NCBI GenBank assembly: GCA_014905635.1
Contig: JABVCE010000009.1
Span: 496,001 to 560,000, forward strand
Length of the DNA stretch: 64,000 bases
Reading direction: 5' to 3'
Source: Scenedesmus sp. PABB004
Taxonomy: Eukaryota
Part shown: piece by piece, positions 31,304 through 56,875 of the stretch
How positions within the stretch are numbered: position 1 is the stretch's first letter
How the letters are laid out: each line of letters begins with the position of its first letter
Notes under the pieces: model-generated
Told to the model about the DNA's origin: nothing
Database searches by the model: none
The model's input: only the letters and a program-made list of their open reading frames with translations
Translations under genes and position numbers: made by a program

Positions 31304-34300
31304 ATGGCCGCCCGCCCCGGCGCCCCCCGTGCGGCGACGCCGGCCAGCACGCTGTTGACGAGCTTCGCCGCTTCGCAGGCCCTGTCCAGCGCCAGCGCGG
31401 CGGCCTGGGGCGCGCCTGCTTGGGCGCTCGCCCTGGGAACGCTGCTCGCGGTCGTCGTGGGCGCGGTGCTGGCGGAGGCCGCATGGACGCGCCTCCATTA
31501 CGACCTGCACAAAATTCCGTGGGCGCCCGACGCGGTGCCGGTGCTCGGTGAGGGCGCGGCGGCGCGCGGCGGCGCGGCGCGCTGCGGCGCGGCGCGCTGC
31601 GACGCGGCGCGCCGTGCTGCGGCAGCACGGCCGACCGCGTTCGCCGCCGCGGAGCAGCGCGCGCAGCACGGCCGACCGCGTTCGCCGCCGCGGCGTGGCG
31701 CCGAGCGAGCGGCTGCCGCGCCCGCGCGCAGGCCACCTGCTGCTGTACTGGCAGCACAAGGACTTCACGCAGTGGTTCCTCAAGTTCCACGACGCCACGC
31801 GCGCGCCCGTGCTGCGCGTGAGCGTGCCGCACAAGCGCTTCCTCATCATCGCAGACCCCGCCATCACCGCCGCCATCCTGGGTGCGCGCCGCGTCCAGCG
31901 CGGCGGCCGCGCTGCCGCGCGCGCAGCATGCAGTGCGCGCGCCTGCCCCCGCGCACGGCGCCGGCGGGACGCGGCGACGCGCCGCCGCCGCCGCGCCCGT
32001 AGCCCGCACGGGCCCCGATGCCGTGCCGCGCAAGGTGTCCGAGTATAGCGCGTTCGATAAGGCCACCGGCCTGCACGGCCACCACAGGTGCGGTCCGCGC
32101 GCGCGGCGCTGCGGGCGCCAGCTCTCCCTTTTTGCCGCGCCGCTCACGCCGCCGCACCGCCCTGCACGGCACCCGTCCCGCCCACGCCCGCCGCCCGCCT
32201 CTCCCCGCAGCATCCTGACGGAGCAGAACGAGGAGATGTGGGTCGCGGTGCGCAAGGCGCTCTCGCCCGCCTACACACCCGCCGCCAACCGCGAGAAGTG
32301 AGCGCCCCGCGCTCGCGGCCCGTGCGCCTCGTGGCGCGCTGGCCCGCCGCTGCTGCTGCTCACCCGCCGCCCGCCTGCGCCGCGCGCGCCTGCGCCATGC
32401 CCCCCACAGCTACGCGGCGGCGCTCAAGGCGTACGGCGACGTGGGCCGCCGCATCGCGGCAGCGATCCGCAAGCAGCAGGCCGCGGCCAAGGTGGCGCCG
32501 CCGGGCAACGGCGGCGCGCCGGACGCCGCGGCGCCGCGCGACCAGGACCGCCCCGGCGTGGGCGTGCGCGTGCGCGTCGTCGCGCCGCCGTGCGCGGACG
32601 TTCAGATCGACCACCACCTGCTGGGCGCGGCCATCCAGACGCAGGCGCGGCGGCGCGGGGCTGGGCCGCCGGCGCCAGGGCGCCGCTGCTGGTGCCGCCG
32701 CCGCCGCCGCCGCAGCAGCAGGGCGCGCCGCGCTGACGGCGACCGCTCGCCGCGTGCTGCGCGCGGCGCGCTGCGCGCTGCGTGCTGCAGGTGGAGGGCC
32801 TCTTTGGCATGCAGCCGGGCGTGGTGGACTACCTGCAGGTGCGTGCGCGGCAGCGCGTGCCAGCCGGGCGCGGTGGACTTGGGCGGGAGCTCACCAGGGC
32901 GGGGCCGAGACGGGCGGGACGCCGTCCCCGCGCGGGCGGCCGCTCACGCCGCGCCGCGCCGCGCGGCTGTGCCAGGCGGCGGAGGACATCGAGACGGCCA
33001 TCAGCATCGTGCACCACTACTCCGCGCAGCCTTGGCAGGCGGTGACGCACGAGCTCGTGCCCTGGGCCACGGCGACGGGCCGGCGCCTGCGCGTCGCGCG
33101 GCTGCGCCTCGCGGGCAGCTGCTATGAGCCGATCATGCGCCACGTGGAGAGCTGGTGGGCGCCGGGGCGCGGCCGCGCCGCGCGGCGGGGCGAGGCTGCG
33201 GGGGGCTCGCGGCCCCGTGCGCGCCGGCGTGCGCGCCGCGCCGCGGGCAGCACGCTGACGCGGCCCGGCCGCCGCCGCCGCGCCCGCCGCCGCGGCCGCC
33301 GCAGCGAGAGCCCCCGCGAGCTGAGCCTCACCGCGTGCCTGCGGCGCCTCGTCGACCCGCGCACGGGCAAGGCGCCCTGCCGCGAGCGCCTCCTCGCGGA
33401 GGTTGGCAACCAGGTCCGGGGACGGCAGCGCGGCAGCGCGGCACCGCGGCCCTGGCGCAAGACGCCCCGCCGCCGCGCGCCGCGCGCCGTGCCGAGCCCG
33501 CCGGCCCGCGGCCGGCCGGCCCCTCCGGCCCGCAGATCATGGCCCCCGAGACCGCCGCGCACACAATCAGCTGGATCCTCTACTGCATCGCGACGCACCC
33601 CGACGCCGAGGCCGAGCTGCTGCGCGAGCTGCGCGGCGCCGGGTGCGCGCCGCCGCTGCCGCGCCCGCACCCGCTGCGCCCACGCTCGCCGCGCCCACGC
33701 CCACCGCGCCCACGCTCGTCGCGCCCACGCTCACCGCGCCCCTCTGCCTGCGCTCGCGCACGTGTGACTGCCCGCCAGGCTGCCGTGCAACGGCGACCTG
33801 GAGGCCGCGGTGTCGGTGCTGGCGGGCAGCTTCGACCCGCTCAAGGGCCTGCCCTTCCTGGGGGGCGTCATCAACGAGGCGATGCGCCTCTACCCCGCCG
33901 GCGCGTCCGCCAGCCCGCGGTGCGCGCGCCGAGCTGCGCGCCGCGCGGCGCCGCCCGGCTCACCCCCCGCGCCGCGCGCTGCCGCCCGGCTCACCCCCCC
34001 GCGCGCACCCCGCGCACGCCGCCGCCGCCCGCGGCAGGCTCACGGAGCGGCCGACGCGCATCGGCCCTTACCTCGTGCCGGCGGGCGTGACTGTGTTCCC
34101 CAGCCTCTTTGTCATTAACAACTTCAGTGGCAGCTGGGGCGCAGACGCGCGCGAGTTCCGGCCGCAGCGTTGGGCCGACCCCGCCGCGGGCACCGACCCC
34201 GCGAGCGGCGCGCCGCGCTTCCTGCCGTTCAGCGCGGGGCCCAAGAACTGCATCGGCCTCGCGCTCGGCCAGGTCGTCGTGCGCAGCGCGGTCGCGATGC

Positions 34301-34553
34301 TACTGTCAACGTTCAGGCGCGCGCGCAGCGCGAGAGCGCACAGCGCACGCGGCGCGCCCCCACCGCCTCGCGGCGGCGGCGCTCGTCGCCGACCCCCGCG
34401 CTGACCCCCCGCGCCGACCCCCGCGGCGCGCCACGCAGTTTTAAGCCCGCCGCGCGCATGGGCGACCACGCGGAGGTGATGTCGCGCTCCATGCTCGCGC
34501 TCACGCTCAAGGTGGAGGGCGGCATGTGGCTCAGCGCCACGCCCCGCGCCTGA
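31304..34553 (+). CDS. Cytochrome P450, multi-exon
   Basis: N-terminal TM anchor, K-helix EAMR (ExxR), FRPQRW (PERF-like) and heme motif FLPFSAGPKNCIG. Confidence 0.93.
31623..31692 (+). repeat. About 30-nt direct repeat x2 in P450 intron 1
   Basis: gcagcacggccgaccgcgttcgccgccgcgg occurs at about 31623 and again at about 31663. Confidence 0.8.
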
Positions 34554-35311: not shown

Positions 35312-38300
35312 TCACGCCAGCGCCGGGCCGAGCAGGCGCGCCGCGGCTGCAGCGTCCACGGCGGTGCCGCCGCCGCCGCCGCGCCGCCCCGCCGCCGCGT
35401 CCGCCGCGAGCGCGGCAAGCAGCGGGTGCTGCAGGCCGCCCAGCGCCAGCCGCGCGCCGCCGGCGCCGAGCAGCGCGCCGGCCGCCGCGCGCGTCTCGGC
35501 CGCGTCGGCCGCGCACGCGAGCAGGCGCAGGAGCTTGAGCCCCCGCAGCCACTGCCCTGCGACGCGCCAGGCCATGGCCACGCGCGGCACGTCGTCGTAC
35601 CCCCGCCGTGCGTTGTGCGCGGCGCGCTGCTCGGGCGACATGGCGGCCAGGGAGGCCTGCTTCTCGGCGGCGCGCCTGCGCGCGAGCGTAGCGCGGCGGC
35701 CGGCGGCGGTCAAACGACGGCGCAGCACACCGCGCGGCTACCGCACGGGGCTGCGCGCACCTGTAGACCGCCTGCGCGCAGGCGGACGCCTCGATAAACA
35801 CCCGAGGCAGCGTCAGCACGCTCACGCTGTCGCTGCCGCCGCCGGCGCCCGCGCGCAGCGGCGCGCCGCCGGGCGGCAGCAGCCCCGCCGCGGTCGTGGC
35901 CGTGGCCGCGCGCTCGCGGCCGCCGGGCCCGCCACCGCCTCCGCCACCGCCACCGCCACCGCCGCCGGCGGCCGCCACCGCCGCGGCTGCCGCCTCGGGC
36001 AGGCCGCCAAAGAGCTCCGTGTCAAACCTTGCCCGAAGCGACAGCTGCAGCTCCGCGCGATCCTCCGCGTGCATGCTGGCCGCGGCGCGGCTCGTGCTCG
36101 CGGGCGCCTGCGGCGGGCCGGGCGCGGCGGCCCGCGCGAGGGTCGGCCGCCCGCCCGTCCGCCGCCGCGCCGCCAGGCGGCGCCGGCGCCGCGTGCGCGC
36201 CCGGCCCGCCGCGGCGCGCGGCCTCCCCGCCCCGCCGCGCGAGCACCGCACCTCGCTGATGAGCGCCGCCCACGACGCGCCCCACTCGCGCGCGAGGCGG
36301 TCCCACTTGGCGATCAGGGGCTCCACCACCTCCGCCGGCACGCCGCCGGGGCCGTGCTGCACGACCAGGTCGGGGTCCAGCATCAGCAGCCCCGGGTCCA
36401 GGTAGTCCGGCGACGGCAGCTCCACCAGCTGCGACCAGAGCGCCCTGCGGCGGCGGCGGCGAGGCGCGCGCGAGCCTCGCGCGCTGCGCAAGGTGCGCGC
36501 GTGCGCGCGCACGCAGGAGCACGCACCTGACGAGCTTGCTGGGCGGCAGCGGCGCGCTCCCGCGCCCGCGGCCGCCGCGCCGGGCGCGGCCGCCGCCGGC
36601 GCGGCTCGCGGCAGCCGCCTCCTTGACCGCCCTGCTGTGCCACGGCGGCAGGGCTTCGGCCTGGGCGCGGTACATGGCGGGGATGCTGACCGCAGCCCCG
36701 GTCTTGGGCGCGTCCAGGGCCCGGTAGTACCTGGGGTTTGAGTGAAAGGCCGGCGGCGGCGGGCGCAGTCGGCAGGTGGGTCAGGGCGGCGCCGAGGAGC
36801 GGCGCTGCGCCGGGGAGCGCGCTGCGCCGCCCCGAGTGGTGCATCTGCCGCCATGCGCGCCGTGCTGGCGCGGCGCGGCGTCCCCCGCGCGCGGCCACGC
36901 ACTTGTCTGCGAGCTCGCCGCACGCGGGGTGGTCGAGCCCGTGGCGGTCGGCGTGCAGCTCCCACAGCACGTGGGCCTCGCTCATGCGCCCCGCGACACC
37001 GCAGCAAAACCCGTAGTAGCTGCGAGGGCCGCGGGCGGGAGGCGGAGCGAGCGGGGGTCGGGGTGCGGCGGGGCCGGCGCGCCCCGCTCGCTGCGCCGCA
37101 GCCCCAGGCTCGCGGCCCCCTCCCGCACCGCGCCGCGCGGCGCACGCACCGCGTGAGCATCGCCTCCACCTGCTCCCAGCCCGCGTCGGCGCGCGCCGCC
37201 CACACCGGCCGGCCGCCGGCGCGCGCGCGCGGTGCCAGCGGCGCATACGGCGGCGGGTCAGCCGGCCGGAAGTGCGACAGAATTTGGTTCCCCCAGAGCA
37301 GCAGGTACTGGTCGCCGTCTGGGCGGGCAGAGCGAGGGAGAGGGCAGGGCGGGAGTGAGCGGGGAGTGAGCGGGGCGGTCAGCCAGGGCGGCGGCGGCGT
37401 GCGGCCGCACCGTAGTCGCCGCCCGCGAGGGAGGCGGCGAGGCAGGCGCCGCCGACGGCCGGCAGGAACGCCGCACCGCCGGCGCCGCGCGGGAGCAGCG
37501 CCGCGAGCTGCGGGGGCAGGGGGACCACGCGCACGCGGCGCACGTCGCCGGCGTGGATGCCGGGGTCGCGGTATATGACCGCGGCGCCCCCGGCGGCACC
37601 AGCTCCGGCGCGACCGCGACCGCGCCCTCGGGCACGCGGCCGCTCGGGTCGGGCAGGCCCAGCAGCCGCACGCCGCCGGCCGCGCACGCGCCGCCGTGGC
37701 CGCTGCCCGCGCCGCCCGCGCCCGCTGCGACGGCGCCGGCGTCCGCTGGGGCCACGGCGTCCCCAGGCGACGGCAGCGGGATCGACAGGTTGGCCAGCCG
37801 CTGGTGCCTGCGCAGCTTGAGCTCGTGCAGCTCCGCCTGCGCGGCGCCCGCGGCGCGCGGCGTGAGGGCGTGCGGGCCGCGGCCGCGGCACCGCCAGCCG
37901 CTGCCCGGCGGCCTGCGCACGCCGGCCCACACACCTTGAGCGCAAGGTCGGGCTTGAACTCGAGCGCGCCTGCCGCCACGCCCGCGCCGGGGCCGCGCGC
38001 CGCCGCGGCGCCTCCAGCCGGCCCCTCCGCCGACCGGGCGGGCACCAGCCCGATGCGGGCCTCCAGCTTGCAGGCCACGTCCTGGGCGCCCGCCGCGCGG
38101 GCCGCCGCGAGCGCGGCGGCCCAACTGGTGTCGAGCGACGAGAGCTTACGCTGTTCGATGCGCAGCCACCTGCGAGGCGCGTGGTGTCGCGTGGCGCTCG
38201 CGCGGCGCTCGCGCGGCGGCGGCCGGCGCGGGCGCGGGGCGGCGGCCCGCGCGCGCGCGCCGCGCTCACTCCTCGAACAGGCTCTGCGGCACGCCCGCGT

Positions 38301-41300
38301 GGTGGAGCAGCAGCAGCAGGCTTCTGTTGATGCGCAGCTCGCCGCCCCCAGTGGCGCCGTCGGGCGGGCGCGACACCACCTCCAGCGATGCGGCGCAGCT
38401 GCAGCAGTGGCTGCCGGCGCCGTCGCCGGCACGGGCCCGGTGCGCCAGGCAGGGCACAGGCGGCGGCGCGGCGCCTGCCGCGCCGGCGCCGCCCCCTGCT
38501 GCCGCCGCCGCGGCTGCCTGCAAGGCGTCGTGCACGTACCAGAGCTGCGCCAGCCGCGCCCGGTCCTGGGCGTGGATGGCTCGCAGCGCCGGCCGGCCCT
38601 CCGCCGCCGCCTCCGCCGCCGCCGCGCCCGCAGCCGCGCGCGCCGCCTCGTCCGCTGCCGCCGCGCCCGCCGCCTCGTCCGCTGCCGCGGCGCCCGTGCC
38701 CGCGCCCGCCGCGCGCGCATGCTGCGCGTGCGCCCACGCGAGCGCCGCGCGCCAGTGCGCGTCCCAGCTGCGCCGGAGCGTCGCGCCCTCGGGCGCCTTG
38801 ACCTGAGAGGCGCGCAGCACGATGACGCCCGGCGGCAACGCCGCTGCCGACAGCGGGAGCAGCGTGCCCTTGGCGACAACGCCGCCAAAGTGGGGGTCCA
38901 AGAGCCGCACCTGCAGCACCCGGGCAGCGGCGGCGGTGGCGGCGGCAACAACCGCTCAGGCACGCCCGTCCCCCGCAGCGGGCAGGGCGGTCCCGCCACA
39001 TGCGCGCGCCGCGGCGCCCGTGCCTGCAGCGGCGTGCGCGGCCACAGCACGCCGCGGCCGCGCTCGGCGGCGACCAGCTCGCCGGCCGCAACGGCGGGCA
39101 CGAGGGCGGCCAGGTCTTCTGAGATGAAGCCTACAGGGCACGGCGAGCGGCGCATTGCGCGACTTGAGCACCGCTCAGGCTGCGAGGCGCGCGCCAGGCT
39201 CGCCAGGCTCGCCGCCGCCCCCGCGCACCCGAGCCGTCGCTGAGCACCAGCTCCTCGGCCGCGCCGCCGCCGCCGCCGGGCGCGAGCGCGGCGCCGAGGG
39301 CGTCAGTCGGGCCGCACACGTCGGGCCAGTACACGATGCGCGCCGCAGGCACCTGCGCGACGCACCGACAGGTCGGCGGCGGCCGCTGCCGCGGCCGGGC
39401 TGGCGCGCGCAGCCTGCCGCGGCCCCCGCGCAGCCGGCCCGCCGTTCCCCACCTTGAGGGGCAGAGTGCTGCTGACGAGGAGCGCGCCGCGTGCGCTCTG
39501 CTTCGCCACGCTCGGCAGGCTCGCAAAGCCGCCGAGCAGCTGCCGCGCGGCAGCGGGGTTGGTCGGCGCCCACGCGGCGGCGTCCTCCGGCGCGACAGAG
39601 TCGGTCGCCAGCAGCCAGAGCGACTCGCCGTCCTGGCCCACGTCCTTTTGGAGCAGCCTGCGGCGTGCGGGCGGAGTTGGCGGTCAGCGGTGCTGCTGCG
39701 CGCGTCACAGCATGCCGCGGCGCCGCGCAGGGGGGCGCCCGCCCGCGCGGTGCCCGACCTGCGGTAGCGCCGCCCAGCGACCACGACGCCGTGGGTGAGC
39801 ACCGCCTCGAGCGCCCGCGCCGCCGCGCCGTGCTGCGCGCCGCCGCCGGCGCTGCCGCCGCCGCCGCCGCCGCTAGCGCCGCCCGCGGCGGCGAGGCTGC
39901 CGGCGACGCCCGTCACGCGGACGAGGCGGTCGTGCGCGCCGAGCACGGGGTGGCGCTGCAGAGCGCAGCTTGCGCCGTGGTCAAGATCAAAGAGCCGCCA
40001 GTCCAGCGCGCCGCCGTAGACCGGCGCCGCAGCGCACGGCGCGGCGCTGGCCGCGGCGGCGGCCGCCTCGTCCGCCGCGGCGAGGAAGGCGGCCGCGTCG
40101 GGGTTGAGCAGCAGGCGCGCGCGGTTGCGTGGGTGCCGTGCGGCCTGCAGCTGCTCCGCGCGCGCGGCGCGCGCCGCGTGGTCGCCCGGCCCGCCGGGGC
40201 TGCACGGTCCGAGGAGCTCCGCGTCTGGCGGGCCGTGGCGCCACAGCCAGACGCCGGGCGCGCCCGCCGCCGCCGCCGCGGCGGCAGCGTCGCGGCCGCT
40301 CAGGCCCGACGCGCCGGCGGGGCCCGCCGCCGCGGGCACCCACGCCAGCCGCCGCGCCTCCAGCAGAGCCAGCATCTCGCGCGACGGCGGCGTGGCCCAG
40401 CGGCCCGGCCGGGGCTGCTCCCAACAGCCGCAGTGCCGCGCCCACTGCGTCACCAGCCCGGCCGGCAGCCAGTACGCGCCCGGTGCGCCGCCGGGGCCGC
40501 GCGTGGCGCCGCCATCCGCCGCCGCGCCCGTGCCGCCGCCGCCCGCCGCCGCGGCCGCGAGCCGCGTGTACGCGGCCAGGTCCTCTGCCAGCCAGGCGTC
40601 GAGCAGGTCCAGCCGCTCGGGCGGCAGGTGCGGCAGCGCGGTCAGCGTGCGGCACGACACAAAGTCCAGCACCAGGAGCTGCTCCAGCAGCAGCCTGCGG
40701 CGGGCGCGGCGGGCAAGGCTTTGAGCCGCGGGCGAGCTGGCGCCGTGAGGGCGGGCGCGGCGGCGCCGTGAGGGCGGCCGGGCCGCGCGGCCACGCCACG
40801 CGCCGCGCGGCGCGGCGCACCGCAGCGGGAAGGTGAGCGCGAGCCATCGCTGCAGGCGCGCCGTCTCGGCTTGTAGGTGCCAAGCGGGCAGCACGCCGCC
40901 CATCGCCGCCGCCAGCTTCGCCACGTCGCCTGCCGCAATCGCCGCCAGCCGCTCCCAGCTGTGCCACACGAGGCTCCACAGCCCCGGGCGCCACGGCGGG
41001 GCGCCGGCGCCTGCGGCGGCCGCCGCTGCCGCGACCGCGCAGGGCGCCGGCGCTCGCGGCACCGGTGGTCTTGGCTGCTGCTGCTGCGGCTGCTGCGGCT
41101 GGAACGGCAGCTCCTGCTGCCTCTCCTGCAGTCGCAGCGATAACGGCGAGGGCTGCGCGGCGGTCGGGTCGGGATGTCCCGGCCGCTGCTGCTCCAGCGG
41201 CTGCTGCGTCCGGCGTGCACCGGGCTCCACATGGGGCTGCTTGCGCGGGCTCTCCTCCGCGTCCTCTGCCTCCTCCAGCGCGGCACGCTTGCCCGGCGTG

Positions 41301-41314
41301 GGCGTAGACGACAT
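35312..41314 (-). CDS. RDR: Cellular (RNA-silencing) RNA-dependent RNA polymerase, RDR-gamma-like (plant RDR3/4/5, fungal QDE-1 type), multi-exon
   Basis: AKQSARGALLVSST, LSDGSG|FISEDLA, PLQ|VRL..VAKGTL, SLEVV, RLLGLPDPSG, VIYRDPGIHAGDV, LAGGDY|DGDQY, YYRALDAPKTG and AWRVAGQWLRGLK. Confidence 0.9.
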
Positions 41315-41525: not shown

Positions 41526-43592
41526 TCACACCTGCTCGTCCTCGTCCTCCTCCTCCTCTTCCGCCCACCGCTCCTCCCAGCTGCTCGGGCGGGGCGCGCG
41601 GGGCGCGGCCGCCGGCGCGCCCGCCGCCGCGGCCGCCGGCGCGCCCGCCGCCGAGCCGCACGCCGCTGGGTGCTCGACTCGGCCACCGGCCGCCGCCATC
41701 CAGCTGGCGTTGAACAGGCAGGTCGTGTAGCTCGGCGGTGTGGGCGCGGCGCGGTGGCGGGCGAGGAACTGGCACAGCGCGCACTCCCCCCTCTCCGCGC
41801 GCTGCGCCCAGAGCTGCCGGAACAGCGGCGACGGCTGCTCCTCGGGCTGCGCGCGGTGCGGCGCGGCGGCGGTCAGGCTCGCGCAGCACGGCGCCTGGCG
41901 CGGCGGGGCGGGGCTCTGCCGTGGCCCGGGCACGGCGCCGCGGCCCGCGCACCTTGACCTGCTTCCACGCCAGCATCGCCTCGTACGCGCCGCGGTCGCG
42001 GCCGAGCCTCTGCAGCAGCGCGGCGAGCTCGCCGGGCGTCGCCGCGTCGCCGCGCCCGGCCGGGTCATACACGATCGCCGCGTTGGGCGCGGGCAGGAAC
42101 TCGCGCACGTTGGGGCTGCCAAGGTAGATGGGCACACACCCCGCCGCGAGCGCGTCCCACACCTGCGGCGGCACGCGCGCGCGGCGGCGGCGACGGCGTC
42201 GGCGCATCGGCTGCCGCGCTGGCCAGCCGCCGCGGCGCGCCGACACCGCGGCAGCCCGGCAGCCCGGCGAGCGGCCAGCACCTTTTCTGTGACGTAGTCC
42301 AGCCGCACGCTGTTCTCCATTGCGACGCAGAACTTGTAGGCCGAAAACACCTCGCGCTTGCCCGCGCCCGGCGACGGCCAGGGCGTGTTGCGGCCGCACG
42401 ACCCGAGCGCGTGCACCGCGACGCCGCTGCCGTTGAGCGCGCCGGCGAGCTGGGCCACGATCTCGGCGCGCCCGCTGTGGGCGTTGCAGTTGCTGTTGAT
42501 GTAGGCCACCGCGTCGTGCTTGCGCTCAAACGGCACCGGCGCGCGCTGCGCGGCGGCGGCGGCGGCGGCGGCGGCAGTCGGGGCGGGCCGCGCGCCGTGC
42601 CGAGCACGCCTGGCGTGCGGTGCGCCGCGCCGCCGCGAAGCCGCGGCGCGCGCCTTGAACAGCTGGGGCAGCGTCTCGAGGCTGTAATAGTTGACCACCT
42701 GCGCGCAGCGCCGGTAGGTTATCTCGGCATCAAACCCGCACATGTACGCCGGGTGCTCGAGCTGCTTGTAGTAAGAAGACGACTCCTGCGACGCGCGGGG
42801 GCGTGCGTACGCACATGCAGAGCGGCGGCGGGCGGCGGCGCGGCGGCGCCTTGCCGCCGCAGCTGCTGCGGCGGGCGGCGGCGCGGCGGTGCTGCTGTCG
42901 CTGCGGCGGCGCACCAGGCTCACGGCGATGTGCAGCTGCCCGGGGAACGTGCGCCGGCGGACGCGGCCGTGGAAGCTGGGGGCATGGTAGTACAGCGCGT
43001 CGGCGGCGTCGAGCTGGGCCTGCGGCGGTGCGAGGGGCCAGGGGCTCGTCACTGGCTCGCTGCCACCAGCTGGCGGCAGCCAGCCAGCGGTGAGCCGCCC
43101 CCCGCCCCTGACGGCGGCATGGCGCGCCCAGCACGCACCTCGCGCGGGCTGTGCACGAAGCGGCAGTTTAGCGGCACGCCCTCCAGCGAGCAGTTGGACG
43201 TGGCGGCGGGCATCGTCCAGAACGGCGCGCTCATTATTGCGACTGTAAACGGCCGCGACGCGGCCGCGCGCAGCGCCGCGAGCTCGCCGCCGGCCGCCGG
43301 CTCACTGTGCAGCTGCACCGGGGCGCGAGAAGCACGCCTGCACGGCGCAGGGCCAAGGGCGAGCTCGGCGGCGGCGTGGCGCGGCGCCACCGCGCAGCGG
43401 CGAGCCCGGCAGCGGAGCTCCGCTGGCCGCGCCGCACCCGTCGAGCCGGCTGGCGAGCGCCAGCAGAGCTCCTCCCAGCAGCACCATGGCGAAGACTGCC
43501 CACGCCGGTCGGCGCTGCAGCCAGCCATCTGCAGCAGGCCGGCGGGGCGGCCCGCCCGGGCCGCCGGCGTCGCTGTGATTGCTCGCTCCCAT
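41526..43592 (-). CDS. Alpha-1,3/4-fucosyltransferase (GT10), type II membrane protein, multi-exon
   Basis: N-terminal TM (WAVFAMVLLGGALLAL), AVAYINSNC, and the GT10 motif YKFCVAMENSVRLDYVTEK|VWDALAAGCVPIYLG. Confidence 0.93.
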
Positions 43593-44218: not shown

Positions 44219-48910
<4,692 letters not shown>

Positions 48911-49614
48911 CCTGCTGATGCGCCCGCGCCGGGCCGCTGCTCCGCCCCTGCACGCTGCGCAAGGCTGCGTCGGGCACTGGCGGGGGACGCCCGGGGTGTG
49001 GGAGACGCGGGGAGCCAGCTCGCGGGCACGCCTGGGGGCGCCAGGGCTTGAGCAGCGCAGCGGTTGAGCGCCGTGCCGCCCCGTGCCGCCCCGGCAGCAC
49101 CCGAGGCAGCTCTGGCCGGGTGGGGGGGCTCACCCGCGAGGTGGAGCAGCCCTTGGTGAGCTGGGAGGCCGGGGCAAGGGCAGCCGAGGGTGCTGTGCTC
49201 GATCGATCGTGCGCGCTACCTGTACGTTGCCGTCACTTCTGTCCCTCGCACTCGTCTCCCGCTGCACAGTCTTGCCCCACTCGCTGGCTTGCATGCAGCT
49301 GGTGCGTCATACAGCCAACAGCAACCCCGTGCGCGTGCGCCGCGCCCGGTCCCCGTGCCTCAGCGCCGCGCGGCGGCGGCAGCAACGCAACGCGAGGCAG
49401 GGAGCAGCGCGGCAGCAACACCAGAGCAGCACCGGGACAGCGCGGCACCCAGACGGCCCGCACAGTCGGCCGCCGCGCCCGTGCGGGCGTGTTGCATTTA
49501 GCCTCGGGAGCGCGCAGCGCGCCTTGCGCTCGTCGCCTCCCCCCGTGCGGGCTCCGCAGGCCGTGCGCCCAGGTCTCAGCGGTCGAGTACTCGTGCCCAG
49601 GTCTCGTGAGCTGC

Positions 49615-51328
49615 TTAGCGTTCGTGCTTGGGGCTGGAAGCGTAGCTCAGGACCTTGTCGGCCTTGTGCACCGCGACCGAGGCGAGGCGGAACTTGTGGC
49701 CGCCCGTCGACGTCTCGTCGAGGATGGTGAACCGCAGCAGGCACTCCGCGCCGGGGCCGACCTCCATGCGCTCCGTGTGCAGCTCGCTCGTGGGGCGGCT
49801 GTTCTTGGCGTCGAAGACCTTGGCCGCGCACGCGCACCCCGACGTGCACTCGACGCGCGCCTTGCCGACGTTGGAGTAGGACTTGAGGAAAGTCAGCGCG
49901 AGCATGACCTTGGCCGACGCCTTGCGGTCGGCGTCGCTCAGCACGTCGCTGTTCACGCGCACCGTGAGCACGCTGCCGGGCGCGTTGGTCAGGTAGCCGT
50001 AGCGGTGGCAGCCTGCGGCGCGGCGGGCGCGGCGGCGGGCGCGGCGGGCACGGGGCGTGATCAGGCGCAGGCGCTGCCCACTTGGCGCTGCTGTTGCTGC
50101 GCGAGCCTGTGGTGTAACTATCTTTGTTCTTTGTTCTTTGCTGCTGCCGCTGCCGCTGTCGTCGGAACCGCCGCCGCCCCCGCCGGCGCCGCGGGGCTCG
50201 CTCGCCGCCGCCGCCGCCGCGCCGCACCAGCGCAGGCGTTGGTGCCCTCGTCGACCCACTCCCAACCCGTGTTGTCGCCGACATACTTCTGCAGGCCCAG
50301 CCCCTGCGCGCAGAAGGTCGGCCAGTCCTCCTGCGCGGCCTCCGGGTTGAGCGGCGGCGGCAGCGCCGGCGGCGCCCGCGCCGCCGCGGCGTCGAGTCCG
50401 CGGTGGTGGTGCAGCAGCGCGCGCGTCGCCTGGTGGCGCAACGCCCACGCGAGGAACGCGGCGTACACGCCCGCGCCGTAGTCGCCGACGTGCACTCTGT
50501 CGAGGAGGATCGCAGTGCGGTTGACGCCGTACGCGTTGTTTGCGTCAAACATGACGTCATACAACGCGTCGCGCACCGACATGACCGGCATGCCGTACCG
50601 CCGCGCCACGACGGCGTGCTGGTCCTCGCCGTTCTCGTAGAAGGGAGTGGGGCGGCCCTCCTTGTCAAGCCAGTGGAACGCGGCAAAGCCAAGCAGCGCG
50701 GCGCGCGGCGCGCGCGCGAGCACCTTGCGCAGCAGCGTCTCGTAGCCCGCGGTCTGCGGGCTCGTGAAGCACTGGCACTCGCCGCCGTAGCTGTTGACCG
50801 AGTACTCGACGAGCACGAGGTCGGCGTCGGGCGGCAGCTCCTGCACGAGGCACAGCGCGGCAAACAATGCCGCGGATGCGCGGCGCGCGAGGTTGGTGAG
50901 CGTGACGTTGGCGCGCGGGAACGCGGCGCTCAGCCACGCCACGAAGGCCTCGGGGTAGGAGGTGTTGCTCCGGCGGCGGTACCCGACCGTCACGCTGCCG
51001 CCAAACGCGACGATTTGGATCGGCTGCGCCGGGTCCTCGGCCGCCAACTTCGCGACGAGGCGCGCCCAGTTGCGGCCCTCCAGCTCGTGCTTGTTGCCCG
51101 CCCTGCACGCGCGCGGCGGTTGCGCCGTGGGCGCGCGTCGTCGTGCGTGGGCCCGCCTGCTGCTCGACCGCGGGCGCCCGCGTGCCACCACCCGCTGTTG
51201 CTGGTCGCCCTGGCTGCCCTGGCTGCGACCGCGTCTGGTGCGCTGCGCGTGCGCCGCAGCAGCAGCGCCCGCGTCTGGCGTCCCCTGGCCCGCAGCCGGC
51301 AGCGGCCACCAGGGCGCCGCCCAGGGGC

Positions 51329-51359
<31 letters not shown>

Positions 51360-51588
51360 TCGCCGCGCGCCCGGCGCTGCCGCCGCCCGCCGCCGCGCCG
51401 CACCTGAGCAGGTTGTCGTTCAGCCCCAGCGGCGCCGCCCAGACGCGCTCTATAAAGTCCTTCTGCTCCGGCGTGAGCCGCGAGGCCTGGCTGACGAACG
51501 CCTTGGCCTTGGCGGCAGCGCCGCCGCCCGGCGCTGCTAGCAGCAGCACCAGCAGCGCGCCCACCGCGGCCTGCCGCGCCGCCACCAT
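49615..51588 (-). CDS. Secreted SGNH/GDSL-type hydrolase, copy B (paralog of 27701-29704)
   Basis: Same exon layout and motifs (IVAFGGSVTVG, EYSVN, DRVH) with scattered substitutions. Ends SYASSPKHER*. Confidence 0.85.
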
Positions 51589-52404
51589 GGCCACGGAGGC
51601 GGCTACTAATGGACTCTGGGACGCCGCGGCGGGCGCGGAGGCGACGGCGCTGGCAGCAGAACATGCCGCCTCACACAAGTCGGAGCACTGGCCAACCGCC
51701 CAGGGCGCGAAGCGGAACCGGGGGGGGGGGGGGGGGGGGGGGGGGGTGTTCCGCATGCGGATGATGCGCAGGGCTGCGCAGGGGTTCCGCATTTGCAGCA
51801 AGCGCTCAACCGCCGGGCACGTTGCGCGGCGATCGCCCGCCACTGCGCAGCGCAACAGGACGCCACGGATTCATTGCACCCTTTGTGCACCACGGAGGAC
51901 CTCGCCACCCCCTGCTGAGCGCGGGGGAGCGGGGCCCGCGATCGCTGATCGCGCTGCCGAAGACGACTCCGCCTTCGTGAGCGCCGGCGTGCAGCTGGCG
52001 ACGCCTCCGCAGGCGCCGTAAATGGTGTCTGTGCTCCGCGAGGGCAGTGAAGAGGCTGGGGCTGGGCGCAGCGGAGCTGCTGCTGCTGCAGCGGCGCCGC
52101 CGCTGCGGCGTACTGGCCGGTGCCCCAGTGCCCCCGGGCGTTTCGAGGGACCTGCAAGCGTGCATTCCAGCCGCCCAAGCCGCCGAAAGGTGCTTCGCAG
52201 ACCCGGGAGCTTTTCTGCCCACTCTGCCCGTTTCTGGCGTAAGCGTCCAGAGCATGCGCAGGCATGCGCAGGGGTTGCGCACCAAGCGCAGGGCTCCCGG
52301 CGCATCCGCTTCGCGCCCTGCAACCGCCCCCGCAGGCCGCCGGGCCTGCGGGCTCTCCCTGCCCACGCTGGGTGCTGCGCGCGGTCCGTAGGGGATGGCC
52401 GTCA

Positions 52405-54112
<1,708 letters not shown>

Positions 54113-54138
54113 AGCCCCGCCAGGGCCCGGCATGGCTG

Positions 54139-54812
54139 TTACCTCAGCAGTCGCTCGGCCGTCGCCGCCGCTGCGGCGAGCGCCCCGCCTGCGTCACCCC
54201 GCCCAGGCGGCGACGCACCACCAGCCGGCCGCGGCGTCGGCGACCTCAGACGTGCTGCCCTCGACGGCGAGCGCGCGCCCCGCCGCGCGGCCCAACGGCA
54301 GCTCGGCGCGCCAGCGCGGCGCCGCCCACAGCCGCCCGCCGACGGCGAGGCTGGCCAGCGCGGTGCGCAGCGCCGCCTGCTTGCCGCCCGCCTGCTGCCA
54401 CGGCGGCGCGCGCGCGCGGGCGCGACGTGGCGGTCCAGCAGCCGCCCGCCGGCGTCCAGGTCGAGGCTGGCAACCTCCTCAAACTCGCTGCCGCTGCTCC
54501 CGCCGCTGCTGCCGCCGTCGCCGCTGCCGCGTCTGCTGCCGCTGCTCGAGCGCGCCCGCCGCCGGCGCTTGGCCTCGCGGCGCTCGCCGATGCTGCCGGA
54601 CCCGCTGCTGCCGCTGCTGCTGCTGCTCACGCGCCGCCGCCGCTTGCGCTTGGCGCCGCCCAGCTGCCCGCGTAGCTTGAGCTTGCGGCGCTTCGACAGC
54701 TTGTGACGGCGCGCGGCGCGCCGGTGGGGCCACGCGGCCCCGGCGCCGTCGCCATCGTCAGCTGCGGCGGCCGCTGCGCCGCCCCGCCTCAGCGGCTGGC
54801 GGGTGGGGCTGC

Positions 54813-54856
<44 letters not shown>

Positions 54857-56519
54857 GCCTGCAGCTGCTCCGGCTGCTGCTCCTGCAGCTGCTCTGGCTG
54901 CTGCTGCTGCTGCTGTTGCTCCTGCTGCCCCTGCTGCTGCCGCTGTGGCGACCGCTGTGGCGCGCCTGGGGCTAGAGCGGCCTCCGGCGTGGCCTCGCGC
55001 GACGGCGCCTGCGCGTCAAGCTGGCTGCACCGGCACCCCAGCTGCGCCAGCGCACCGGGCAGGCCGCTTGGCTGCGCCGCGCCCAGCAGCAGCAGCTGCA
55101 GGCGCAGCAGCCAGCCCGACGCGAGCACGCGCAGGCGCTGCTCCGGCCGGGCCGCCGTGCCAGCCAGCTGCCGGGGCGCGTCCGCCGCCGCGCCCGCGCC
55201 GCCCGCCGCCGTCCAGAGCGCCTCTGCTGCTCGCACCAGCGCGGCCAGCTGCGCGCCCGCCTCGTCGTCATGCCGCAGCAGCGCCAGCAGCTGCGCGCGG
55301 TGGCACGTGAGCGCGTTGGCGAGCAGCAGCTCGTCCATGCCCCAGCGCTGCAGGCAGTCGCCGTCGCCGAGCAGCAGGCGGCTGGGGTCGGCCACCCACG
55401 CCACCTGCGCGGCGGGCACCGCCGCGCCGCCGCTGCCGCTGCGGGCGGCCGCCCACGCCGCCTGCTCGGCCGCCCAGCGCTGCAGCGGGGTCGGTCCTGC
55501 ACGCGGCGCCGGCGGCGCGAGGAGGCGCGCGAACGCGAGCAGCTGCTCGTCCGGCAGCAGCGGCAGCAGCCGCGCGCACAGCGGCCCCCACTCGGCCGAG
55601 GCAATGAACTCCTGCAGCAGCGCCTGCGCGCGGCCGTGGCGCGACGAGCGCGGGCTGTCCAGCACCCGCAGCAGCTCCTGCGGCGCCGTGCGGCCGGACG
55701 GAAGCGGGAGGCCTCGGCGCGTGCGCGACACCGCCCGCGCGCGCTCGCGCGCGCGCGCCGCCGCCGCCAGCGTCGTCGTTGCCCACCGCGGCGCGCACCT
55801 GCTGCACCATGTGCGGCGCGAGGTCGAGCCACTCGCCGTCCGCGCACGCGCGCGCGAGCTCCTCACTCGCCCAGAAGCCGGGGCAGCGCGCCCGCAGCGC
55901 GTCCAGTGTGGCGTGGAGGTCCAACTCGGCAAAGTAGTGCGGCCGCGCCGCGACGGCGACGGGCGCCTGCGTGCGCTTGCCGCCCCACACCAGCAGCTCC
56001 CACACGTCGCCGCGGTGGCGCAGCGCGTAGTTGGCAAACGCGCGCGCGCCGCGCTTGAACGACCCGATGCCGGCGAGGCTGGTGAAGTGGGCGAACCAGG
56101 CGGCCTCGGCGCCGCGCGACGACGTGAGCACGTCGCGCAGGAAGGCTGGGTCGGCGCCGAGCAGCGCCGCGACGCCGGCCGGCCGCGCCGCCGCCAGCGC
56201 GCCAGCAAGCGCGAGCGCCGCGCGCTCGCAGCGCGCGAGCGGGCCGCGGCGCGGCGAGAGGCAGGCGCTGCGCGCGGCGGGCTGCACGTGCGGCAGGTGC
56301 GCCAGGCTGCTGATGAGCCAGCCCCGGGCCTCGCCGCGCGCGTTGGCGTCGCCCTGCGGCGGCGCGCGGCGAACGGTGCGGCAGCATCGGCGCGCGGTGC
56401 GGCCCCCCGCGCCCAGGCCTCCGCGCTCGCAGGCTTGCAGGCCCTGGCCCGTCGCCCCGCACCAGGATCAGTGAGCGCAGGGCGTCCTCCGCCGCCGCCA
56501 GCGGCGCGTCGAGCGACAT
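54139..56519 (-). CDS. Hypothetical protein with a structured N-terminal domain, a poly-Q tract and a basic NLS-like region
   Basis: MSLDAPLAAAEDALRSLIL...WELLVWGGKRTQAPVAVAARPHYFAELDL...CPGFWASEEL, plus HKLSKRRKLKLR. The 3' end frame is uncertain. Confidence 0.65.
54814..54940 (-). repeat. CAG/poly-Gln coding microsatellite
   Basis: A long (ctg)n tract on the + strand. Confidence 0.9.
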
Positions 56520-56875
56520 CGGCGCCGCTGCGGCCTGCGCCGCCGCCGCTGCGGGGCTGCGTGCACGCTGGCGAGGCGCTGGGGCGCGCGCTAGGTCATG
56601 GAGCGGCGGACGGGCGCTGCAGCGGCCCCGCCGCGCCGCGGCGGTGGCGCCTGTCGAGCGGCCTGCTGCTGCCCGCGCGGCGTGCTTCTGCTGCCGTGCG
56701 GGGAGGCGTGGACAGGAGCGTGTTGCCGCATGCGCGAGCACACAGCCCGAGCCCCAGAGCCCTCAACCGCGCAAGCGGGCGCGCGAGTCGCGGCGCGACG
56801 GGCGCTGCGGCGGCGCCGCGCGGCGCAGTGTCGCACGGAGCAGCGCGCTTTCCAGCGCCGCCGTGAGCGCCGGCG

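Follow-up and report, generated by a model that had tools for sequence, protein, structure and literature searches.

We describe here a predicted gene for a cellular RNA-dependent RNA polymerase (RdRP) of the double-psi beta-barrel family (PF05183) in a 64-kb stretch of DNA from the green alga Scenedesmus sp. PABB004 (GenBank assembly GCA_014905635.1, contig JABVCE010000009.1, positions 496,001 to 560,000), which we refer to as the window and to whose first letter all positions are counted. The gene runs from 41314 to 35312 on the minus strand and is composed of 15 exons and 14 introns encoding approximately 1406 amino acids (aa), of which one, at a frameshift, is left undefined. On balance, the sequence points to a resident nuclear gene of a GC-rich green alga whose product is an RdRP of the RDR-gamma kind and is probably functional. 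The composition of the window is extreme, with a GC content of 73–83% per 2-kb step, and within the RdRP gene the introns (85%) are richer still than the exons (79%). Stop codons are scarce and open frames of hundreds of codons are present in all six frames, so that lists of open reading frames (ORFs) are uninformative here and gene calls that rely on them cannot be trusted in this genome; the gene was set instead by homology and splice logic. A preliminary description of this DNA had remarked that the ORF track contained only fragments of the gene.

The catalytic D-x-D-G-D loop is present as D-Y-D-G-D, and it is split by a 92-nt phase-1 intron (intron 9). The minus strand reads GGC GAC TAC G, then the intron, then AC GGC GAC CAG TAC, and the spliced product is G-D-Y-D-G-D-Q-Y, exactly as first read in the preliminary description; if the intron is not spliced, a TGA codon follows 12 codons on. 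The DY-DGD join does not arise by chance, because the closest full-length homolog, EP00775_P005922 of EukProt (here P0018; 1106 aa) from Hariotina reticulata (Scenedesmaceae, Sphaeropleales, Chlorophyceae), has the loop unbroken as GGDYDGDQFLLLW (GGDYDGDQF), which equals the proposed splice product through GGDYDGDQ. Via P0018, the loop aligns with GGDYDGD of Neurospora QDE-1 and GGDLDGD of Arabidopsis RDR2. P0001, P0021, and P0022, three proteins predicted from the genome of a close Hariotina relative, cease to be similar right after GGDYDG, and these protein ends suggest that an intron interrupts the relative's gene close to the position of intron 9, one codon on. The preliminary description had named PF05183 as a check on the family assignment, and the catalytic exon piece (37412-37588) does match it at 28.0 bits (cut-off 23.8; profile positions 386-436), the only one of the 16 exon pieces to do so; a match to BAALC_N (E 0.18) in the same scan was at chance level. 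With the frame-wise ORFs one of nine matched, at 22.5 bits, and for comparison P0018 scores 172.6 bits and the two plant RDR5-like proteins described below 349 and 368 bits against the same profile.

With the catalytic exon as query, a single protein was recovered among 8000 scored candidates, P0001, which is 407 aa long, 73% identical, and carries PF05183. Residues 225-400 of P0001 in turn gave three hits at E<=10 among 6524 candidates of at least 714 aa in a collection of 5.8 billion proteins, a search that sees only candidates sharing words with the query, and these are P0018 and two Caryophyllaceae proteins, P0019 from Heliosperma and P0020 from Silene latifolia, the latter named 'putative RNA-dependent RNA polymerase 5'. 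The exon encoding YYRALDAPKTG gave no hits among six candidates, metagenome scans with the N-terminal alignment and with P0001 gave 374 and 222 pattern matches of which none was confirmed, and the ESM Atlas queried with P0001 returned PF05183 clusters only.

To build the gene model, in-frame GT/GC-AG pairs were enumerated between conserved blocks and chosen by alignment to P0018 and P0001. The resulting introns are 82–339 nt long and all 14 are GT-AG, with GTGNNN donors in 13 of the 14 (GTGCG[CGT] in seven) and CAG acceptors in 13. The spliced model aligns to P0018 with 699 bits by blastp (43% identity over 1016 aa) and 775 bits by phmmer, and P0018 is colinear with the window exons by tblastn (E 5e-36, 2e-26, 4e-34, and 1e-27 in a search of the 64 kb). 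The RdRP-like signal is confined to this one locus, which contains all 14 of the high-scoring segment pairs found in the window by tblastn at E<=1e-6. All of the motifs listed in the preliminary description (PLQ/VRLL..AKGTL, SLEVV, LLGLPDPSG, VIYRDPGIHAGDV, and YYRALDAPKTG) are found in minus-strand frames, and we regard the gene model as solid in its core. The end coordinates proposed previously fit the first ATG past an in-frame stop (41314) and the stop codon at 35314-35312, although both ends are placed by sequence alone and the start is tentative.

Other borders are also not fixed, namely the intron 5 donor, the intron 6 acceptor, the intron 10 donor, both ends of intron 13, and the extent of the Ala-rich tail. 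For the intron 5 donor the GT at 38999 was chosen, P0018 likewise having extra residues there, and a GC at 39023 was set aside but could still be used. Exon 6 has about 22 residues more than P0018 ahead of intron 6. At the junction of exons 8 and 9, both P0001 and P0018 are continuous across the splice as PDLALKEELH. In the alignment to P0018 the exon 15 tail has no counterpart past LRGLK. Hariotina P0018 is colinear over nearly its full length and shares GGDYDGDQ[FY]LLLW, YY.ALDAPKTG, and AWRVAG as well as blocks 1, 2, and 4 of the N-terminal extension described below, but it is about 300 aa shorter, lacks the middle N-terminal block and the Ala-rich tail, has a long insert of its own in the exon 8 region, and is without functional annotation. 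The features of the gene and its neighbors are collected in the table. The fucosyltransferase gene lies directly upstream, so close that the RdRP promoter and 5' untranslated region have no more than a few hundred bases.

Table. Predicted RdRP gene features and neighboring genes, with positions in the 64-kb window
Feature	Position	Strand	Remarks
Exon 1	40821..41314	minus	Q/P-rich start, then N-terminal block 1 (WRPG...FPLR)
Exon 2	39759..40694	minus	N-terminal blocks, then RdRP domain start (LQRHPVLGAHDRLVRV ... GVVVAGRRYR)
Intron 2	39658-39758	minus	GTCGGG..CGCAG
Exon 3	39453..39657	minus	tblastn to P0018 residues 197-281, 64% identity
Intron 3	39353-39452	minus	
Exon 4	39229..39352	minus	Ends ..LVLSDGSG; tblastn to P0018 residues 266-307
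Intron 4	39131-39228	minus	Yields SDGSG/FISEDLA
Exon 5	39000..39130	minus	Begins FISEDLAALV; 3' end uncertain
Exon 6	38738..38910	minus	VRLLDPHFGGVVAKGTLLP...LRASQ...; tblastn to P0018 from residue 351
Intron 6	38399-38737	minus	339 nt
Exon 7	38270..38398	minus	SLEVVSRPP...GVPQSLFEE; alternative acceptor 38411
Exon 8	37935..38169	minus	Flanked by 38170-38269 (GTGAGC..CGCAG) and 37837-37934 (GTGTGT..CGCAG)
Exon 9	37411..37836	minus	LLGLPDPSG ... VIYRDPGIHAGDV ... LAGGDY; 66-73% identical to P0018 and P0001; carries the frameshift
G5 run with 1-nt frameshift	37587..37591	minus	Frame changes between ..PELVPPG and AAVIYRDPG
Intron 9	37319-37410	minus	92 nt, GT-AG, phase 1, GTGCGG...CCCAG; between DY and DGD
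D-Y-D-G-D codons	37417-37411 and 37318-37311	minus	Read directly; intron 9 between
Exon 10	37150..37318	minus	DGDQYLLLWGNQILSHFRPADPPPY...; matches P0018 DGDQFLLLWDEAILKHFRTEDPPPF; intron 10 donor 37149 or 37128
Exon 11	36903..37019	minus	Splice enumeration and alignment to P0018
Exon 12	36527..36730	minus	YYRALDAPKTG...PPWHSRAVKE...; tblastn to P0018 residues 799-866
Intron 12	36445-36526	minus	GTGCGT..CGCAG
Exon 13	36247..36444	minus	
Intron 13	36076-36246	minus	One among several in-frame border choices
Exon 14	35761..36075	minus	Contains a poly-Gly stretch
Exon 15	35312..35675	minus	...VPRVAMAWRVAGQWLRGLK, Ala-rich tail, stop; tblastn to P0018 residues 1044-1091, 54% identity
Cytochrome P450 exons	33128-34401	plus	PF00067, E 2e-15 and 5e-4; convergent with the RdRP 3' end
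GT10-type fucosyltransferase	41529-43301	minus	PF00852, E 1.4e-12; directly upstream of the RdRP gene
Two Sec23/Sec24-family genes, tandem	44284-49232 and 51609-54143	minus	Pfam domains
GDSL-like lipase/acylhydrolase	50121-51419	minus	PF13472, 32.6 bits (cut-off 32.9); between the two Sec23/24-type genes
Weak TFIIA alpha/beta match	54142-56595	minus	PF03153, 22.9 bits (cut-off 36.2); low-complexity ORF

Cellular RdRPs are divided into alpha, beta, and gamma classes, a scheme that reportedly goes back to Zong et al. 2009, and the affinity of the algal enzyme to RDR-gamma is supported by score ratios and motifs. The best non-algal relatives in the word-pre-filtered search are gamma members, the two Caryophyllaceae proteins. 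The phmmer scores of P0018 are 92.3 and 84.9 bits for these two proteins, against 25.6 bits to Arabidopsis RDR2 and 20.5–25.8 bits to QDE-1-type structures, and BLASTP against the Silene protein gives segments of 87 bits (33% identity over 219 aa) and 54 bits (25% over 280 aa). The motifs YR[DN]PGIH.GD, GGDYDGD, YY.ALDAPK.G, DG.G[FY]IS.DLA, and AW[RK]VAG recur in the window protein, in P0018, and in the two plant hits, where the first and third read YRNPGIHPGD and YYDALDAPK. The loop has the aromatic residue of D[FY]DGD rather than the leucine of alpha-class DLDGD. The assignment to the gamma class in the preliminary description is thus partly supported, by nearest relatives and motifs. In contrasting a fungal DYDGD with a plant DFDGD, that description was right about QDE-1, which does have GGDYDGD, but P0019 and P0020, both gamma-class RDRs, carry DYDGD instead of the DFDGD usually quoted for plant RDR3/4/5, and DYDGD is therefore no fungal peculiarity. 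Many plant members do have DFDGD and not DYDGD; the name DFDGD class appears in paper titles, and tomato Ty-1/Ty-3 is placed in this class in PMC3610679.

The likeness to each of the better known enzymes is partial. With plant RDR-gamma (P0019 and P0020) there is a common PF05183 core together with the gamma motifs, but identity is only 27% over about 220 aa and 25–26% over about 260–320 aa, and the N-termini are unrelated. QDE-1 (PDB 2j7n, 5fsw, and 7y7p), which we take to be a gamma-clade member, has the GGDYDGD loop and belongs to the same fold family, and approximately 80 residues round the loop align; it is nonetheless very distant, and similarity is detected within the catalytic stretch only. 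Arabidopsis RDR2 (PDB 7eu0 and 7roz), an alpha-class enzyme, shares the family and the catalytic architecture and aligns to P0018 residues 645-812, but at the corresponding positions it reads GGDLDGD, NPCLHPGD, and AVDFAKTG. The putative RdRP of Coccomyxa subellipsoidea C-169 is comparable in that this chlorophyte retains a cellular RdRP where Chlamydomonas does not, although Coccomyxa is of the class Trebouxiophyceae and the two are likened here by description.

At the N-terminus the protein is extended by about 400 aa, a conserved region that related algae share. When residues 1-518 of the frame running from 41314 to 39761 (frame 0) were searched exhaustively by phmmer against 1.84 billion representatives, 16 proteins were found at E<=0.001 (nine at <=1e-10 and three at <=1e-30), all of them fragments of 69–377 aa with 38–70% identity, so that none of the 16 is a full-length annotated protein with the extension. 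The conserved block at the end of exon 1 is WRPG...W.L.F.[FL]R, and it is followed by VLDFVS.RTL.QLPHLPP..L..LD.WL, by a middle block that is absent from the Hariotina type, and by RAE.LQ..HPRNQ..LLL; the last block, LQRHPVLAAHDRLIRV...GV..AGRRY.R, marks the start of the RdRP domain when P0018 is aligned with the plant proteins. P0011 and P0013-P0015 align to exon 1, and three of the four end at ..FHFR, which is the exon end (P0014, P0015, and P0011 with a few residues more), while P0018 runs from block 1 straight into exon 2 sequence. Similarly, AGRRYxR at the end of exon 2 is where 9 of the 16 fragments end or lose similarity. Introns 1 and 2 are supported because so many homolog fragments stop exactly at exon ends, and there may be more introns within the low-complexity parts of exon 2.

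The earlier statement that this region has no recognizable domain is in agreement with our scans, in which no Pfam family was matched on the extension, either in frame-wise ORFs or in exon pieces. A structure prediction, which had also been suggested, gave a poor model: AlphaFold2 with exon 2 and 13 sequences reached a mean predicted local distance difference test score (pLDDT) of 53.3 and a predicted template modeling score (pTM) of 0.30, with one long helix alone being confident. The ESM Atlas gave no usable hit with the extension, and a profile of the first two algal N-terminal blocks found no match in the plant RDR5-like proteins (hmmsearch E 0.23 and 0.29 for the two targets). As judged from these searches the extension is lineage-specific, with no fold or family found for it.

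Several observations count against a functional gamma-type enzyme. The gene is predicted here from genomic sequence; the exon borders of introns 5, 6, 10, and 13, the start, and the tail are unsettled; 15 of the 16 exon pieces do not match PF05183 singly, these pieces (28–311 aa) being too diverged to match alone; and at this GC content the absence of stop codons is no argument for integrity. In addition, exon 9 carries a 1-nt frameshift, located in a stretch of five G residues, which escaped the preliminary description. In the assembly, the coding sequence is interrupted there and the protein is truncated upstream of the catalytic loop. The homologs are continuous at this position (..LVPLGGRAVIYRDPG in P0001 and ..LVPLSGRAIIYRDPG in P0018). 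A short intron bypassing the frameshift was considered and rejected, since there is no AG downstream ahead of the conserved VIYRDPG codons to serve as an acceptor, and splicing thus cannot absorb the break. Because the frameshift is present in the given sequence and no intron can bypass it, the locus might be a recently inactivated pseudogene, in which a real 1-nt deletion in the G run causes the protein to end before the loop and the enzyme is no longer used. Loss of RdRPs would not be exceptional in green algae, where it has occurred repeatedly, as illustrated by Chlamydomonas, which PMC7676726 describes as being without conserved RDRs. Nonetheless, we consider a pseudogene unlikely. The frameshift is the sole frame break found over 15 exons aligned to P0018, the splice sites are all canonical, the catalytic and flanking motifs are all kept, and the GC content of the three codon positions is strongly periodic (83/62/93%). 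The break also sits in a homopolymer, and homopolymers in DNA of about 80% GC are a typical place for one-base assembly errors; as this is such a common assembly fault, we favor an artefact as about twice as probable as a real deletion. Thus the frameshift most likely reflects an assembly error in the homopolymer, and the gene is probably functional.

The class of the enzyme can be questioned on other grounds. The gamma placement is drawn from score ratios and motifs, and P0018 is equally distant from QDE-1 (25.8 bits) and RDR2 (25.6 bits). Pairwise scores also do not reproduce the group of plant and fungal gamma enzymes, because the plant RDR5-like protein scores RDR2 (69 bits) above QDE-1 (37.7 bits), and chlorophyte RDR-like sequences are referred to as 'ancient RDR-like homologs' with long branches and poor support in PMC7994812. 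The equal distance of P0018 from QDE-1 and RDR2 and the long chlorophyte branches, together with an N-terminal extension that has no plant counterpart, would fit a functional RdRP of a deep, chlorophyte-specific RDR lineage outside gamma proper, its likeness to plant RDR5 reflecting retained ancestral motifs. We find this somewhat unlikely, as P0018 is closer to the plant RDR5-like protein (92.3 bits) than that plant protein is to RDR2 (69 bits), gamma-type motifs are shared at three separate places, and an RDR3-clade protein has been reported in Chlorophyceae (bioRxiv 10.1101/2022.01.18.476847). A different question is whether an active enzyme would operate outside the Dicer/Argonaute pathway of small interfering RNAs (siRNAs), for example by making DNA-templated RNA at damaged or repetitive DNA, an activity that QDE-1 is said to possess, or in an RNA quality role. 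To our knowledge, small-RNA pathways are the only established role of the cellular RdRP family in plants and fungi, and we think such a function improbable. An RdRP without the standard pathway does occur in green algae, however, as Coccomyxa C-169 is described in PMC3446292 as having RdRP and Argonaute-like genes but no recognizable Dicer.

If the gene encodes a functional RDR-gamma enzyme, a plausible course of action can be proposed. From what QDE-1 and RDR2 structures and plant RDR genetics have established for the family, the three aspartates of the algal D-Y-D-G-D loop would hold the catalytic metal ions. The enzyme would copy single-stranded RNA, probably aberrant or derived from transposons or viruses, into double-stranded RNA, to be processed by a Dicer-type nuclease into siRNAs that initiate or amplify silencing in a Dicer/Argonaute pathway. 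The N-terminal extension would probably recruit the enzyme to a template or partner, although this is a guess, and it is fair to conjecture that the enzyme acts against viruses or transposons.

The presence of RdRPs in green algae is not itself new. According to PMC3446292, Coccomyxa C-169 'encodes a putative RdRP', the bioRxiv report cited above mentions a protein of the RDR3 clade in Chlorophyceae, and PMC7994812 refers to ancient RDR-like homologs in Chlorophyta. Because RDR3-like genes in Chlorophyceae and the Coccomyxa RdRP are already in print, the novelty of our observation is modest and the gain incremental, although within the literature searched we found neither this subfamily of algal enzymes nor the function or N-terminal extension of its members described. 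The preliminary description had noted that Chlamydomonas lacks a canonical RDR, which agrees with PMC7676726, and since this reference alga has no conserved RDR, work on chlorophyte small RNAs has largely ignored RdRP amplification. We tentatively propose, as a possibility we hold with some doubt, that there is a chlorophycean RDR-gamma subfamily with a conserved N-terminal extension of about 400 aa, a subfamily that Sphaeropleales-like algae have retained and the Chlamydomonas lineage has lost. If this is so and the enzyme is active, some green algae would run RdRP-dependent small-RNA amplification that is hidden from the model chlorophyte, and the new N-terminal module would be a part that selects templates or partners. 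In either event, a gamma-type RdRP gene model in a chlorophyte offers a concrete target for knockouts and small-RNA sequencing, its relatives occurring in Hariotina and on no fewer than a dozen algal contigs that lack annotation. For the plant RDR3/4/5 class, which is poorly understood and best known for the virus-resistance genes Ty-1/Ty-3, it would add an early-branching reference.

The surroundings of the RdRP gene were surveyed with a Pfam scan of 150 of the 352 ORFs of at least 120 aa, spanning approximately 26.8–56.6 kb of the window, and 16 of these had a Pfam match. The preliminary description had proposed a quelling-like route, in which QDE-1 works with a RecQ helicase, Dicer, and Argonaute; no Dicer or Argonaute families were matched among the 150 ORFs. 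The neighbors scanned show no signs of transposon or viral insertion or of clustered silencing genes; they are ordinary nuclear genes cut into many exons. The weak TFIIA alpha/beta match is probably compositional. The trunk, zinc-finger, beta-sandwich, helical, and gelsolin domains of the two Sec23/Sec24-family genes are scattered across many frames. A tblastx comparison between these two paralogs, as a gauge of the assembly frameshift rate, was swamped by low-complexity matches. Their tandem arrangement suggests either a local duplication or a Sec23-type and a Sec24-type paralog lying side by side.

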